Part shown: piece after piece, positions 2,546 to 15,970 of the stretch | How the letters are laid out: every line of letters starts with the position of its first letter | Position numbering within the stretch: the first letter of the stretch is position 1 | Origin: an uncultured Acetobacteraceae bacterium | Lineage (GTDB): Bacteria > Pseudomonadota > Alphaproteobacteria > Acetobacterales > Acetobacteraceae | Direction: 5' to 3' | NCBI GenBank assembly: GCA_964235765.1 | Contig: CAXSDH010000023.1 | Location: forward strand, 14,306 to 38,305 | Length of the DNA stretch: 24,000 nucleotides | Notes under the pieces: generated by a model | Databases searched by the model: none | What the model was told of the DNA's origin: nothing | The model's input: only the letters and a program-made list of their open reading frames with translations | Translations under genes and position numbers: made by a program

Positions 2546-5500
2546 TCAGCGGTTCCACTGGATCAGCAGGTAGTCGATCGCGTCTGGCGTGTCCTTCAGC
2601 AGGGTATCTTGCGTGATGCTGAAATGCGCGTCGGCGGTGGCCTGGGTGAGGCCGGTGAAGGTCATGGAGCCGAGGATGCCGGTGCCTTCGCCGTTCAGTT
2701 CGGAGTGGATGGTCAGGCCGGTGTAGCCGGCGGCGCCGTCCGATGCGGTGAAGGGCAGGGTGCTGAGGCCGGGGTGGAAGCCGAAGATGGTGGCGGCGTC
2801 GCCCTGGTGGAAGTTGACGATGGTGCTCCAGGTCTCGACCGCGCCGCGGCCGTCGACGAAGAAGGTGTCGGTGCCGCCATCGCCGCCGTCGCCGCCGATG
2901 AGGAAGTTGGAGCCGCCGCCGCCGTCGAGCACGTTTTGGCCGCCCTTGGCGAACAGCGCGTCCGCGCCGGCCCCGCCGTGCAGGAACGCGTTCGGCACGG
3001 CGGCGGCGATGGCCACGGAATCCGTGCTGTTCCAGAGGTATTCCTGTTGCAGGTAGGTCACCGGGCCGGTGTAGGCCGTCCCCTGGGCATAGCCGACGCT
3101 GTTGGTGATGACGTCGGTGTAGGAGAACTTGGGCGGGTTGCCGGCCGCGGTGTCGGCCTGCGCGCCGACGATGGCGGCGAGGTTGGCGCCGGTGTAGGTG
3201 CCGGCCACGCTGCGGCTGTCGCCGGTGGCGGCCGCGGCGGCGAGCGCCGGCGCGGCGCGGCCCTCGACGACGGTATCGACGGCGGCCACGTCGGCCAGCA
3301 GCCCGGCCGGCGAAGCGCCGTCGGCGCCGAGCTTGGCGGTGAGCAGGTCGCGGCTCGCGCTGGCCAGCGCGGCGGTGTCCGTCGCGACCTGGCCGGTGAG
3401 GCCGTACGACTGCATGGCGGCCGGGCTGGTGGGGTCGAAGGCCTGGAACGGCTGGGCGGCGATGCCGGTGGCAATCCTGATGAACAGGTCGCCGGGGGCG
3501 CCGGCCGCCTGGGCAAGCGCCATGGTCTCGAACAGCACGGCATTGGCGATGAGCGCCTGGTTGGCGGTGCCGTTGACGTTCAGCACGCCGGAGACGGGGT
3601 CGAGCATGCCAAGCTCGGTGTCGCCGGGCAGGCCGAGCGCTGCGTTCACCATGGCGGTCGCCTGGCCGATGGTGGCCCCGGTGGTGGTGAGCAGCGTCTG
3701 CACCAGGGTGGTCAGCGCGTTGATGGCCGGCGCGCCGGCGGCGGCCGTGAGGCGGCCGGTGAACGGCAGGTTGGTGGAGGTGTCGGTGCCGCCGATCAGC
3801 ACCAGCGGGCCTGTCGCGGTGCTGCCGAGGATGTAGCGGCCCTGGGCGTCGGTGGTGGCGCTCACCTCGCCGGTGGTGAGCAGGCCGTCCCCGTTGGCGT
3901 CGGCGAATATGGTGGCGCCCTGGATGTAGCCATGGGTGGCGTGGCCCATCAGGCTGGAGCGGCCGAGGCTTTCGCCGGGGAAGGTGAAGGTCTGGGCGCG
4001 GACGTCGGACGGCGTGCCGGACTTGTGCTCGCTGGCGATCAGCAGGGCGCCGTTGGCGAGCTGGGTCGCGGCCGGGTGGTAGATGCTGGTGCCGGCGGCC
4101 GGCGTCTCGCCCTCGAACTCGTCGCCGGAAAGGCTGCCATCGGGGTTGAACACCTGGGCGCGGACATTGCGGTTGACGATGGTCTTGCCGCTGAAGCCGC
4201 CAAGCCCACCCGACTCCCAGGCAATGACGAACCGCCCGTCCGCCAGCGCCGTCAGGCTGGGCGCCGCCGGCGTCCCCGGCGTGAAGCCCACCGAGTAGTC
4301 CTCGGTCAGGGCCGTGCCGGTCGCGTCGAACACGCGGGCGCGCACCACCGCGAACGGCTGGTCGGCGGTCACCAGGCTCTCATCCACCCAGGCGATGGCG
4401 ACGCTGCCGTCCAGCAGCACGGTCACCGAAGCCTTGTCCTGCGTCCCGGCCGTGCCCGTGTTGACGGTGACGGCCCGGCCGGCCGAGCCGTCGGCCGCGT
4501 AGAACTGGGCAAAGATGTCCGGGGTGCTGCCGCTCACCAGCCCGGCCCGCGCGGCGAAGGCGACGACGAAGCCGCCATCGTGCAGCCCGGCCGCCGCCGG
4601 GTCGGCCGCGTCGTAGCTGGCCAAGGGCGCGGGCACGTCGAAATTGCCGCCGACCAGGGCGTTGTCGGCGCCGATCCGCTGGCCGGTCAGCTTCCGGGGG
4701 CCGTTCAGGCTGTCGTTCGTGCGCCAGAACGCGACCAGGCCGCCGCTGCCGAGCGAGGCCACGACCGGCTGGTCCTGCGGGCCGACCCGGGCCGCGTTGA
4801 GGAACACCGCGTCGCCATCGGGCGCGCCGAACTGGTCGAAGAACCGCCCGCGAATGTCGGTGGAGCGCGTGAAGTTGCCGTTGCGGTCCGTCTCGTTGTG
4901 CCGGTCGGTCCAGGCGACGAAGAACCGCCCGCCCGAAAGGCCTGTGACGGTGGGCGAGGTCTGGTCGAAGCCATCGACGAGGCTGATGGGGATGACCGGT
5001 CCGGACTTCGTGCCGTCGGCGTTCAGCAACTGCCCCCGGATCTCGAACCGGCCGCCAGCGTCCGGACTGTCGTCGACCCAGGCCACGACCGACTTGCCGG
5101 TGGCCAGCCCGGCAATGACGGGCGTGATGCGCTGCATGGTGTCGGTGGCGCCGGGGCTCATGAGCGCCTCGGTTCCCGCGGCGGCGCTGACCAGGACCTC
5201 GGGTCCGGCAGCCGCGGCGATCTGCGGCGGAGCCGGCGGCGGCGGCGGCACGGCCTGGAACTGCCGGGTGGCGAACCCCCCGCCGTCCTGGCTGATGAGG
5301 GACGAACCCTGCCGCAGGTTGAAGTCGGCGCCCTGCTTGGCGAGGGCGGCCAGGTCCGCCTGGCCGAACACGAGGTTGCCGCCCCCGCTCGCCACCAGCC
5401 CCCCGCCATCCTGGCTGATCAGGCCGCCGCCATCCTGGCTGATCAAGCCGCCGCCATCCTGGCTGATGAGCTTGGAGCCATCGGCCAGCCGGAAGCCGCC

Positions 5501-6238
5501 GCCGTCCTGGCTGATCAGCCCGCCGCCATCCTGGGAGATCAGGCCGGGCTTGTTGACGATGGCGTAGGCAAGGCTCGCGACGGCGCTGGCCGACCCCGCG
5601 CTGAGCAGGTTCGAGTACATCGTCCCGTTCAGCAGCGCGAGCGCCCCATCGGGACGCAACAGCGAACTGTCGTTCAGCTTCACCCCGGTCGGCAGCAGCT
5701 TGTACTGCCCGGCCGGCACCTGAATTTTTATGCTGTGCACGACCAGGGCGGACGGCGCTTTCGTGTCGCCGGCGTCGGCCGAGGCAAGCAGCAGCTTGTA
5801 GTCGCCAGTCGTGTTGATGTTGAAGCTGTAGCCCGCGTGATGGGTCCGGTGCCCGTTGCCGATCCACTCGTTCACATCCCCCAGCAGCAAGGGCGTGATG
5901 AAGCCGGCCGAATTGGCGAGCAGGGCGAAGGCGAAGTCGTTATGGGCGCGGTCGCCCGGAAGGTAGTCGTAGTCCAACACCAGCTTCTCGCCCGCAACCA
6001 GGTGGATCGGGGCGAATTGCGCGGTGGTCATCGTCTGCGGGGCGTAACCCTCGATCGCCTTGATGATGCCGTTGGTATAGGCGTCGTTGGCGAAGGCGGA
6101 ATAGCCGAACCCGGTCGCAGGCTTCAGCCCGGATACGATGCGCAGCCCGTCCGACCCGGTGCTCACCTGCGCCGCATTCGCCGCGACGGCCGAGGTCTGT
6201 CCACGAGTGAGATCCAGCGAGAAGTCCAGGTTGGGCAT
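2546..6238 (-). CDS. Giant (about 1230 aa) cysteine-free mosaic repeat exoprotein with a C-terminal RTX (hemolysin-type Ca-binding) block; probable type I secretion substrate or adhesin
   Basis: ORF 2546..6328. I prefer the start at 6238 (MPNLDFSLDL) because GGAG lies 6 nt upstream, and because the 30 codons above it hold the only two Cys residues in the ORF. No N-terminal signal peptide is visible. There are four in-register nonapeptides (LHGGAGADA LFAKGGQNV LDGGGGSNF LIGGDGGDG) about 105 aa from the C-terminus. Confidence 0.85.
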   Translation of the reverse strand: MPNLDFSLDLTRGQTSAVAANAAQVSTGSDGLRIVSGLKPATGFGYSAFANDAYTNGIIKAIEGYAPQTMTTAQFAPIHLVAGEKLVLDYDYLPGDRAHNDFAFALLANSAGFITPLLLGDVNEWIGNGHRTHHAGYSFNINTTGDYKLLLASADAGDTKAPSALVVHSIKIQVPAGQYKLLPTGVKLNDSSLLRPDGALALLNGTMYSNLLSAGSASAVASLAYAIVNKPGLISQDGGGLISQDGGGFRLADGSKLISQDGGGLISQDGGGLISQDGGGLVASGGGNLVFGQADLAALAKQGADFNLRQGSSLISQDGGGFATRQFQAVPPPPPAPPQIAAAAGPEVLVSAAAGTEALMSPGATDTMQRITPVIAGLATGKSVVAWVDDSPDAGGRFEIRGQLLNADGTKSGPVIPISLVDGFDQTSPTVTGLSGGRFFVAWTDRHNETDRNGNFTRSTDIRGRFFDQFGAPDGDAVFLNAARVGPQDQPVVASLGSGGLVAFWRTNDSLNGPRKLTGQRIGADNALVGGNFDVPAPLASYDAADPAAAGLHDGGFVVAFAARAGLVSGSTPDIFAQFYAADGSAGRAVTVNTGTAGTQDKASVTVLLDGSVAIAWVDESLVTADQPFAVVRARVFDATGTALTEDYSVGFTPGTPAAPSLTALADGRFVIAWESGGLGGFSGKTIVNRNVRAQVFNPDGSLSGDEFEGETPAAGTSIYHPAATQLANGALLIASEHKSGTPSDVRAQTFTFPGESLGRSSLMGHATHGYIQGATIFADANGDGLLTTGEVSATTDAQGRYILGSTATGPLVLIGGTDTSTNLPFTGRLTAAAGAPAINALTTLVQTLLTTTGATIGQATAMVNAALGLPGDTELGMLDPVSGVLNVNGTANQALIANAVLFETMALAQAAGAPGDLFIRIATGIAAQPFQAFDPTSPAAMQSYGLTGQVATDTAALASASRDLLTAKLGADGASPAGLLADVAAVDTVVEGRAAPALAAAAATGDSRSVAGTYTGANLAAIVGAQADTAAGNPPKFSYTDVITNSVGYAQGTAYTGPVTYLQQEYLWNSTDSVAIAAAVPNAFLHGGAGADALFAKGGQNVLDGGGGSNFLIGGDGGDGGTDTFFVDGRGAVETWSTIVNFHQGDAATIFGFHPGLSTLPFTASDGAAGYTGLTIHSELNGEGTGILGSMTFTGLTQATADAHFSITQDTLLKDTPDAIDYLLIQWNR
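2864..2980 (-). other. RTX nonapeptide block (4 GGxGxD-type repeats) inside the giant gene
   Basis: Period-9 pattern L-x-G-G-x-G-x-[DN]-x read in the translation, followed by GTDTFFVDG and a Cys-free tail ending IDYLLIQWNR. Confidence 0.8.
3974..5116 (-). repeat. Seven protein-level repeats of about 56-62 residues (beta-propeller-like) inside the giant gene
   Basis: A recurrent pair of anchors. The first is VVAW / FVAW / LVAFW / FVVAF / VAIAW / FVIAW / LLIAS. It is followed 16-22 residues later by IRGQLLNADG / IRGRFFDQFG / LTGQRIGADN / IFAQFYAADG / VRARVFDATG / VRAQVFNPDG / VRAQTFTF. Confidence 0.7.
5276..5542 (-). repeat. 24-bp (8-codon) tandem repeat array encoding LISQDGGG
   Basis: Six perfect LISQDGGG units plus degenerate in-register units (FRLADGSK, LVASGGGN, LVFGQADL). 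At the DNA level the units are near-identical (gccgccgccatcctggctgatcag on the + strand), and the few differences I checked are synonymous. Confidence 0.95.
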
Positions 6239-6326
6239 CGATCGCTCCAGCAAGGCGCCCTGTCCGCATTCGTTGCAGGATGAGCTGTGTTTCAATTCAC
6301 GCCCAGGTAGCACCTTCCTCTCGCGC

Positions 6327-6364
6327 AACGAACTTTAAATTCACAAAAAAATGCTAATTTCGAT
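6327..6364. promoter_or_regulatory. AT-rich core of the divergent intergenic region between the giant gene and the leuC-like operon
   Basis: aacgaactttaaattcacaaaaaaatgctaatttcgat is the most AT-rich stretch I noticed in the window. It lies between two divergent starts (6238 minus, 6491 plus). No confident -35/-10 pair could be assigned. Confidence 0.35.
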
Positions 6365-14938: not shown

Positions 14939-15970
14939 CTTCGCCGTGGCGGCGCCGTTTCCGCCGCCTTCCACATCGCGCTCCTGCTGGCCTTGATCCT
15001 GGCGCTCCCGGCTCATGTGCCGGAGCCCGCTGCCGACGAGAACGCCATCACCATGGCCTTCGAGGCCGCCCCGGCGCCCGTGCAGCGGGCGCAGACACCC
15101 GGGCCCACGCCGGCCCCGGCGCCCGCGCCGGTGCCGACGCCGGACCAGCCCTCCCCGGAGCCGCCGAAACCCGCGCCCCCGGTGCCGCCGCCACCCCCAC
15201 CACCGCCGCCGCCGCCGCCGCCGCCCGCTCCCCCGGCGCCGCCCGCCCCGGCCCCGCTTGTGCCGCCGCCGCCTGCAACGCCCGTGGCGCCGCCCGCGCC
15301 AGTGACGACCGCGCCCGCGCCAACGCCGGTCCCGGCGCCGCGGCCCACCCCGCCCGCGCCGCACCCGCCGCCGCTGCCGCCCCCGCCGCGCCCCGCGCCG
15401 CCGCAACCGGCCCCGCCGCTGCCCGCCCCGCCCGCGCCGCCGGCGCCAAGGCCGGCGCCACCGTCACCCACGCCTGCGCCGCAGAGCAACAGCACCACCA
15501 GCCAGCCCAACCCCACCCGCAACCCGGCGCCGGAAAGCCGCGCGCTCGAAAACACCCTCGAACGCCTCCGCGCCCAGCAGCCGCAGCGCGAGGCGCCCCG
15601 CGCCGCCTACAACCCGCCCCGCGGCGGCGCCCCCGGCGGCGGCAGCCCGACCGGCGTGGACAACGCCCTGCTGAGCGCCAGCGTGCGCGGCGCCATCGGC
15701 GACCGCCTGCGCGAATGCTGGACCGGCGACCGCGGCGCGCTCGACTTCGACAAGCAGACGGTGCGGCTGGTCGTGACCACCGACACCACCGGCACGATCC
15801 GCGTCGCCGACATCGCCGCCTCCGACGCGTCCCGCACCGGCGGCGGCGTGGCCCGCGCCTTCGCCGAGCGGGCACGCCGCGCGGCGCTCGACCCGCAATG
15901 CGCGCAACTCCCGCTGCCCGGCTCCATGAAGGGCCAGAACCGCACCTTCGAGATCACGTTCCGTCCCTAG
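14927..15970 (+). CDS. tolA: Cell envelope integrity protein TolA (TonB-like proline-rich variant)
   Basis: Position between tolR and tolB. N-terminal TM anchor [18 protein letters not shown], a Pro/Ala-rich linker of about 140 aa, and a C-terminal domain ([12 protein letters not shown] through FEITFRP) resembling the TolA/TonB C-terminal fold pattern. Confidence 0.8.
15203..15223 (+). repeat. (CCG)7 trinucleotide tract inside a run of 14 consecutive proline codons (15185-15226) in tolA
   Basis: Counted directly from the sequence. Confidence 0.95.

Follow-up and report, generated by a model that had tools for sequence, protein, structure and literature searches.

Among short tandem peptide repeats, the RTX, pentapeptide, hexapeptide and ice-nucleation octad repeats have each proved to specify a solenoid fold of their own, with its own job. 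In the RTX repeat (PF00353, GGxGxDxUx), a short Gly/Asp-rich tandem repeat of secreted bacterial proteins, every unit contributes a strand and a Gly turn, and the profile holds an invariant Ca2+-ligating Asp per turn. The ice-nucleation protein (PF00818) has an 8-residue periodicity, with higher-order periods of 16 and 48 residues, and forms an extracellular beta-solenoid, and the triple beta-helix of VgrG and the T4 gp5 C-terminus (PF06715, VxGxxxxx), an obligate intertwined homotrimer, is likewise built from 8-residue units that contain a hydrophobic residue and a Gly. The BNR/Asp-box (PF02012, SxDxGxTW) occurs once per propeller blade. At the level of whole modules, LapA-like adhesins carry a retention module together with a helix and a polyglycine linker (PMC10990149). 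Here we describe an array of LISQDGGG octads that shares some features with the RTX, ice-nucleation, gp5/VgrG, Asp-box and LapA systems, found in a window of 24,000 nucleotides (the whole stretch of DNA that was analyzed). The protein carrying the octads comes from a lichen metagenome, and its host is an alphaproteobacterium.

The octad array and the protein that carries it

The octads are encoded on the minus strand, for which the sequence-only reading had given no orientation. The open reading frame spans 6328..2546, and its ATG at 6238 is the start of the protein. A GC3 of 0.93 in this frame, together with many database homologues, indicates that it is a real gene, and one database entry (P0003) is identical to its product. 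In a second, independent assembly of the source run, taken from Logan, window positions 4900-5900 are identical. The features of the gene are listed below in the order of the protein.

2546..6238, minus strand: whole gene, 1230 aa (translation, GC3, P0003 and homologues)
5549..6238, minus strand: N-terminal domain, aa 1-230, predicted beta-sandwich/jelly-roll (AF2, Foldseek, relatives)
5351..5542, minus strand: proximal octad block, aa 233-296, eight slots (translation, relatives)
5300..5350, minus strand: spacer, aa 297-313, predicted helix (AF2 helix 293-309, pLDDT about 70)
5276..5299, minus strand: distal single LISQDGGG unit, aa 314-321 (translation, relatives)
5225..5248, minus strand: Pro-rich linker PPPPPAPP, aa 331-338 (translation)
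2879..2980, minus strand: weak RTX nonapeptide block, aa 1087-1120, apart from the octads (PF00353)

Translation yields six perfect LISQDGGG units, five of which lie in the proximal block and one of which stands isolated, 33 residues after the last of these five. The eight consecutive octads of the proximal block stay in register and read, in order, LISQDGGG x2, FRLADGSK, LISQDGGG x3, LVASGGGN and LVFGQADL. The first unit occupies 5519-5542 and the isolated unit 5276-5299; the unit count, the register and the range of 5276-5542 proposed in the sequence-only reading were thus all accurate, the range being the exact span from the first to the isolated unit. A degenerate DNA pattern for LISQDGGG matched six times in the window, always within this array, with 0 matches in each of 100 dinucleotide shuffles and none outside the array in the 4.05-Mb genome. 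When the region is read against the pattern of the wider octad family (at least three in-register copies), seven of its eight slots fit or come close, and a profile made from 46 arrays matches it at E = 1.2e-18.

The domain order of the protein is N-terminal jelly-roll, octads, Pro-rich linker, propeller-like repeats, weak RTX block and conserved C-terminal domain, and no Sec signal peptide was found in the 1230 residues. The N-terminal domain was modeled by AF2 with a pLDDT of about 95, and its best Foldseek matches were jelly-rolls of the CBM15/16/22/6 and MAM types, all of them weak (E from 7.5e-4, target TM 0.57). It is kept at residue 1 in 26 relatives and always stands ahead of the octads in this protein family. 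The spacer helix separates the proximal block from the distal unit, and its pattern x-A-L-A-x-Q-x-x-x-F-N is kept in the relatives. Directly after the PPPPPAPP linker comes an Ala-rich stretch, and TRF reports a period-3 GCG run at 5224-5249. The RTX block gave a PF00353 match of E = 0.027, whose 14.9 bits fall short of the 23-bit cut-off; the NCBIfam RTX and serralysin models also matched it weakly, and the whole-protein Pfam search returned nothing else.

Comparison with known repeat families

Searches of Pfam and NCBIfam with the whole protein and with eight pure arrays, at E up to 10, assigned no family to the octads, in agreement with the earlier view that the motif is not RTX and belongs to no named family. 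The RTX assignment itself can be rejected, as PF00353 was silent on the octad region and on seven other pure arrays at E <= 10. The two repeats differ in period (9 against 8), their hydrophobic and Gly/Asp positions do not fall into alignment, and the Asp that is invariant in RTX is dispensable in many octad units and arrays.

Three further resemblances were followed. For the ice-nucleation protein, the language-model features of a pure array placed it as the nearest cluster with a score of 0.46, which is a lead only, and the ESM Atlas offered nothing beyond low-score leads; the octads, however, have no PF00818 match, none of the TxT/SxL water-ordering motifs and no 16- or 48-residue super-period. 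For the gp5/VgrG repeat, no PF06715 match was found at E <= 10, and phmmer against the PDB gave VgrG beta-helix and tail fibre matches at chance level (E 1.9 and 7.6). A three-copy ESMFold2 run of the octad region scored 0.00 with a pLDDT of 26, equal to the controls, a low score that is not evidence against binding. The patterns LISQDGGG x2 and ISNDGGS x2 were absent from 2.9 million viral contigs. For the Asp-box, the string S-Q-D-G-G-G-L-I, read across unit borders, fits S-x-D-x-G-x-h-h, but PF02012 reached only E 0.36-0.6 and 10.8-11.4 bits on octad arrays against a cut-off of 27, and this motif resemblance is a lead only. Unlike the Asp-box, the octads recur in tandem every 8 residues, and the N-type octads (A-x-G-G-G-N) lack its S and D.

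Spread and unit rules of the octad family

A 12-unit array used as query retrieved 954 clusters (50% identity) at E <= 1e-3 and 196 at E <= 1e-10. Octads are common to 81 database matches, among them unrelated architectures (RHS, DUF11, FG-GAP, NHL, PD40, LamG and TPS), and they occur in unrelated extracellular architectures of at least five named taxonomic groups. The exact LISQDGGG x2 pattern was present in 10 species genomes, titled Terriglobia, Chthoniobacterales/Chthoniobacteraceae (4), Alphaproteobacteria, Rhodospirillales, Enterovirga and a Cyanobacteria-labelled MAG, among others. The sequence-only reading had pointed to similar octads in other phyla, and the homologue, pattern and cluster searches confirm this. 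Many carriers are lipoproteins or have a signal peptide, with the array just past the anchor; arrays are placed after lipoboxes, between domains and at C-termini, for example in RHS and DUF11 proteins. In the open literature, the octad motif strings appeared in no relevant paper. Judged from these sequence comparisons, the octads are one copy of a widespread extracellular repeat family without name or description.

The family consensus is [LIV]-[IV]-[S/A/G]-[Q/N/H]-[D/G]-G-G-[G/S/N], and an array holds between 3 and 20 units. At position 5, 54% of units have D and 30% have G. Asn at position 8 was found in 6 of 489 D5 units and in 170 of 263 G5 units, so that D5 and N8 are mutually exclusive, by a statistic that is uncorrected for relatedness. 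No super-period of two or three units (a 16- or 24-residue coil) was detected, and the identity of unit types drops steadily with lag.

Conservation and age of the array

The closest database relative of the octad protein is 48% identical, and among same-genus genomes one alone has a full-length homologue, at 40% identity. Against the relatives P0004-P0008, the octads are 59-89% identical, whereas the N-terminal domain reaches 45-59% and the propeller 35-41%; no part of the protein is better conserved than the octads. Six relatives of 45-60% (about 50%) identity all keep the proximal block at 7-8 slots, and the deviant slot 3 is kept in P0004-P0008 as F-[KR]-L-x-[DN]-G. The distal block has one unit in the window protein and 3-5 in the relatives.

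At the DNA level, the units had been described as almost identical and differing mainly at synonymous positions. The second half of this description stands, since the six perfect units differ from one another at synonymous sites alone, one of these being a serine codon that is either TCC or AGC; the first is overstated, with 19-22 of 24 nt identical in pairwise comparison and a TRF report of 6.3 copies with 70% matches. The mean unit identity of 20.8/24 nt compares with 19.9-20.2 expected from the same peptide and the local codon bias (simulation, P = 0.11-0.19). The window gene and the P0006 gene have slot-specific codons in common (TCC in slot 1, TTG in slot 5), and the five perfect slots that they share show 11 synonymous and 0 non-synonymous differences. 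Orthologous slots in different genes are at least as similar as paralogous slots within a gene (21.8/24 versus 20.5/24, permutation P = 0.05). Given the match to codon bias, the slot layout shared with relatives and the slot-specific codons, the identity of the units is ascribed to purifying selection that acts on the peptide. This is an old array held by protein-level selection, and not the product of recent duplication, of gene conversion or of an unstable DNA repeat. The earlier proposal of a recent or homogenized array does not agree with these data, and recent duplication or homogenization of the units is ruled out by the codon-bias simulation together with the slot orthology.

These measurements also bear on the idea of a contingency locus, in which a recent or homogenized 24-bp array would generate in-frame length variants by slippage. 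Its period equals 8 codons, exact identity at lag 24 extends to 21 nt, and the distal block does vary among relatives, so that slippage is mechanically possible as had been suggested; the proximal block, however, has 7-8 slots in all six relatives, the distal block alone varying, and the independent assembly contains the identical array and no variant contig. With the codon-bias result, the synonymous differences and the slot orthology added, we consider such a locus very improbable, and the idea of a hypervariable contingency repeat is removed for this gene.

Predicted structure and calcium

AF2 left the octads of the window protein unfolded (pLDDT 41-56). For the 12-unit array of a relative, supplied with 46 aligned arrays, it predicted a solenoid-like form with one short strand per octad (pLDDT 65.8, pTM 0.50), at a moderate confidence, four of the five models scoring 48-57. 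The Foldseek neighbours of this array model were all beta-solenoids (an autotransporter passenger, CsgA, ice-binding proteins, LbH enzymes and bactofilin), every match being non-significant at E >= 0.14.

From these observations we infer, with a probability of roughly 45%, that the octads are a folded repeat of strand and Gly/Asx turn, serving as a spacer or stalk behind the N-terminal jelly-roll, with the identity of the units kept by purifying selection. Each unit would form a short beta-strand (positions 1-4) and then a four-residue glycine turn, which may be capped by Asx at one end or the other (D5 at the start, N8 at the end), and the stacked units would build a thin folded rod of solenoid-like or ribbon-like shape. 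The eight fixed slots, the helix and the one further unit would together give a semi-rigid spacer or stalk, possibly also a surface for binding or self-association, that links the CBM-like jelly-roll with the exoprotein's propeller and RTX parts.

The low pLDDT in the native context and in the three-copy run would equally suit an intrinsically disordered, elastic Gly-rich linker, which as an entropic spacer would keep domains apart from one another or from a lipid anchor and might be decorated or self-associating. The continuous family range of array lengths is also compatible with a flexible linker, as are the positions of arrays in their carriers and the lack of a structural super-period. 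We hold this linker to be possible but doubtful, because the octads are the most conserved segment of the protein, which is unexpected for a disordered spacer, the exact peptide is kept across several phyla, the slot number and the deviant slot persist in relatives about 50% identical, the D5/N8 rule is strictly either-or, and two beta-branched hydrophobics per eight residues are unusual for a soluble disordered linker.

Calcium offers a different account of the same models. RTX-type proteins are unfolded without Ca2+, and the low octad pLDDT could be explained likewise if the octads were a Gly/Asp-turn solenoid that corresponds to the RTX beta-roll, with a period of 8, and needs extracellular Ca2+ in order to fold. 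The DGGG turn is indeed Gly/Asp-rich and an RTX block lies in the same protein. The silence of PF00353 and the replacement of D5 by Gly in nearly a third of units, most of which then carry N8, speak against this account; in addition, 21 of 171 arrays of at least five units contain neither Asp nor Glu, and the Ca co-fold score of 0.04 fell below the 0.11 of the Zn and Fe controls, in a test with little power. The acid-free arrays and the co-fold result also count against the earlier suggestion of possible Ca-binding, and we regard a Ca-dependent solenoid as quite improbable.

Secretion setting

A type I secretion ABC/HlyD pair is encoded in the genome, away from the octad gene, and no secretion genes adjoin this gene or the genes of two relatives. 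Type I secretion is the probable export route of the exoprotein. The protein resembles the LapA-type module (PMC10990149), with a folded N-domain, a helix and a Gly-rich stretch at the N-terminal end of an RTX exoprotein without signal peptide. By analogy, the fast-folding jelly-roll might act as a periplasmic plug while the octads (about 64 residues) and the helix thread a TolC-like channel and retain the exoprotein at the surface, a tether with which the missing signal peptide, the confidently folded N-domain at residue 1 in all 26 relatives, the weak C-terminal RTX block and the distant ABC/HlyD pair are all consistent. Such a tether nevertheless appears unlikely. The N-domain is CBM-like and differs in fold and size from the known retention modules, the LapG-type BTLCP protease (PF06035) had no match in the organism's own genome (96.8% complete), and adjoining secretion genes are missing from all three loci. 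Furthermore, Sec-dependent lipoproteins carry octads as well, and RHS and DUF11 proteins have them at the C-terminus; in neither setting would a passage through TolC make sense.

Implications for the octad family

Tentatively, and with clear reservation, the octads may represent a new class of beta-solenoid or ribbon, a modular rod whose conserved exposed face binds a common extracellular ligand in several phyla of soil and lichen bacteria; the candidate ligands would be a polysaccharide, ice or water, or the octad rod itself. If this were true, a ligand-binding exposed face would explain why exact LISQDGGG is kept across phyla.

The octad family has no database model, structure or paper. Its exact residues are conserved across phyla, and it comprises about 1000 clusters (50% identity), mostly from bacteria of soil, freshwater and lichens that are uncultured. 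With a family model, a 'low-complexity' stretch that recurs in many giant surface proteins could be annotated, and a structure would tell whether a strand-turn unit of 8 residues amounts to a new solenoid geometry.

An octapeptide array within one long gene

The repeat lies inside a single long minus-strand gene, whose GC3 reaches 0.93 in the minus frame; the opposite ORF gives a low-complexity translation. The 1230-residue product is present in the protein collection as P0003 and has numerous homologues. The sequence-only reading had placed the array at 5276-5542, and these coordinates were exact, with six perfect LISQDGGG units and eight in-register octads confirmed by translation:

6238..2546, minus strand: octad-bearing gene
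aa 233-296, minus strand: proximal octad block in a single 8-residue register (LISQDGGG x2, FRLADGSK, LISQDGGG x3, LVASGGGN, LVFGQADL)
aa 314-321, minus strand: sixth perfect LISQDGGG unit, by translation

The repeat is far beyond chance, with six matches to a degenerate DNA pattern for LISQDGGG in the window and none in 100 shuffles. No match to this pattern was found elsewhere in the 4.05-Mb genome, and a profile built from 46 arrays matched, within this genome, the octad gene only. The only public run containing the window DNA is a lichen metagenome, an independent assembly of which yielded an octad region without any difference.

The surrounding window (1-24000) is housekeeping in character, comprising a leuC-like aconitase, a PEP-mutase/ICL family gene, ymdB, yebC, ruvAB, tolQ...tolB-pal-ybgF, tilS, ftsH, folP and glmM, and no secretion or mobile genes adjoining the exoprotein gene were found in it. 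A long GC-rich stretch of imperfect 6/18/24-nt repeats (15128-15482, plus strand) falls in an ORF between the tolQ-like gene and tolB; this ORF has no Pfam matches, and the repeats probably encode the Pro/Ala-rich stretch of a TolA-like protein.

Conservation and age of the array

The octad part has the same layout in the window protein and its closest relatives (P0004-P0008), which are 45-60% identical to it there. It opens with two units, then a degenerate slot of the form F-[KR]-L-x-[DN]-G and a further two to three units. Next come LVA-x-G-x-G-N-type units, numbering one to three, and a degenerate slot that closes the series; a helical spacer then leads to the distal block. The proximal block comprises 7-8 slots in all six proteins, whereas the distal block has one unit in the window protein and 3-5 in the relatives. 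No other part of the window protein is as well conserved as the octad block.

Identity of regions of the window protein to its relatives
Octad block: 59-89%
N-terminal domain: 45-59%
Propeller region: 35-41%

The near-identity of the DNA units had been taken as the mark of a recent or homogenised array, which the codons do not bear out. The six perfect units have 19-22 of 24 nt in common (mean 20.8), and the same peptide encoded with codons drawn from the usage of neighbouring genes, or of the remainder of the octad gene, would give 19.9-20.2 (P = 0.11-0.19). The units are thus alike because their peptide is identical in a 71% GC genome, and they vary synonymously (CTG/CTC/TTG, GAT/GAC, GGC/GGG, TCC versus AGC). 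Furthermore, the window gene and the P0006 gene both have an odd serine codon (TCC) in slot 1 and TTG for leucine in slot 5. Orthologous slots agree at 21.8 of 24 nt, non-orthologous ones at 20.5 (permutation P = 0.05), and the five perfect slots common to both genes differ by 11 synonymous and 0 non-synonymous changes. The array is not a hypervariable DNA array; together, the slot layout, slot-specific codons and high peptide conservation show that it is old, stable in position and maintained because selection acts on its peptide.

Four of the six perfect units use GAT, a rare codon that accounts for 16% of local Asp codons (P about 0.007), and GAT is likewise common in octads from two relatives (L013:6001-11166; L014:6001-9192). 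This excess may come from the context of a following GGC, or may reflect inherited codons.

Anatomy of the octad

The consensus drawn from 177 proteins, [LIV]-[IV]-[S/A/G]-[Q/N/H]-[D/G]-G-G-[G/S/N], resolves into a D class (h-h-S-[QNH]-D-G-G-[GS]) and an N class (h-h-A-x-G-G-G-N). D5 and N8 almost never occur together in one octad: in counts uncorrected for relatedness, N8 is found in 6 of 489 D5 units versus 170 of 263 G5 units. Both classes keep an Asx residue flanking the Gly-Gly pair, an arrangement expected of a tight turn with a cap. Array length ranges from 3 to 20 units, and no 2- or 3-unit super-period was found. Some arrays directly follow a lipoprotein or signal-peptide anchor, others lie between domains, and others occupy the extreme C-terminus in RHS and DUF11 proteins; all of these positions are extracytoplasmic.

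In RHS proteins, a toxin domain normally follows the DPxG motif; in four from other phyla (P0039, P0043, P0070, P0083), octad arrays reach the last residues after this motif. Many array-bearing lipoproteins (P0088, P0111, P0142, P0164, P0139 and others) carry an entry motif ahead of the first octad, roughly L-x-G-x-V-x-x-D-x-x-Y-V-V-A-x-G-G-G-N, similar to the opening strand of a CarboxypepD_reg-like domain.

Predicted structure and a possible role

AF2 modelling of aa 1-365 of the window protein (26-row alignment) predicted a jelly-roll fold for aa 1-230 (pLDDT about 95), for which the nearest solved structures, all weak, are carbohydrate-binding modules and MAM domains. The octads were modelled at pLDDT 41-56 and a helix at 293-309 at about 70. 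Modelling aa 226-330 in three copies gave no complex signal (score 0.00, pLDDT 26). For the regular 12-unit array of the family member P0014 (46 aligned arrays), the best model placed one short strand in each octad, with a pTM of 0.50 and a pLDDT of 65.8 (48-57 in the other four models), and its Foldseek neighbours were all beta-solenoids, none significant. Of the Gly/Asp-turn solenoid proposed earlier, these models weakly favour the solenoid. The calcium part found no support: in co-folding, the P0014 array scored lower with Ca2+ than with the Zn and Fe controls, and arrays without acidic residues exist.

We consider it somewhat short of an even chance (about 0.45) that the octads are a folded strand-plus-turn repeat, whose units would stack into a thin rod that serves as a spacer or stalk of eight fixed slots beside the N-terminal jelly-roll. 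The main weight here is carried by conservation, since a floppy linker would be expected neither to be the most conserved segment of the protein, nor to preserve a slot-specific deviant unit, nor to follow the D5/N8 rule.

Route of secretion

The window protein lacks a signal peptide and carries a weak RTX block (aa 1087-1120); its C-terminal domain has many paralogues, both in the same genome and in relatives. Outside the window (G000:C10:24013-27201), the same genome encodes an HlyD-family protein (343 bits, above the curated cut-off) and, adjoining it, a PrtD/HlyB-like ABC transporter (320 bits), a pair that is likely its type I secretion system. These features together suggest that the protein leaves by type I secretion.

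The C-terminal region of about 190 residues (RTX block plus tail; 2546-3180, minus strand; aa 1020-1212) has further copies on contigs C82, C3 and C38 of this genome and 11-12 matches in each of two related genomes (G009 and G019). It is apparently a C-terminal module common to a family of exoproteins.

The suggested type I route raises a rival arrangement, in which the N-terminal domain could be a periplasmic plug and the octads the thread through an outer-membrane channel. The model for it is the LapA-type adhesins, whose retention module comes with a helix and a polyglycine linker (PMC10990149). Against this analogy, no LapG protease was found in the window's own genome (96.8% complete), and other phyla have octads in lipoproteins and at protein C-termini as well.

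A widespread octapeptide family

A word-based search found 81 proteins, of which about 28 carry the N-terminal domain together with octads. The remainder have unrelated architectures with octads alone in common, including RHS, DUF11, FG-GAP/VCBS, NHL, PD40, LamG, IPT and one TPS-domain protein; Chthoniobacteraceae, Acidobacteria, Chloroflexota and Bradyrhizobium appear in the source names of the 81. An exhaustive phmmer search with a 12-unit array against 1.84 billion representatives returned 954 proteins at E <= 1e-3, of which 196 reached E <= 1e-10. Among about 185,000 species genomes, the exact two-unit DNA pattern was restricted to 10, every one a MAG, including Terriglobia, Chthoniobacterales/Chthoniobacteraceae (4), Alphaproteobacteria, Rhodospirillales, Enterovirga and one labelled Cyanobacteria, and the two-unit pattern had no match in 2.9 million viral contigs. 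Neither Pfam (2025) nor NCBIfam (2026) holds a model for the octad, and chance matches aside, twelve of its motif strings were not found in a corpus of 8.4 million open papers and preprints. The window repeat is a member of a widespread, undescribed octapeptide family, an addition to the short repeats rich in Gly that bacterial surface proteins carry.
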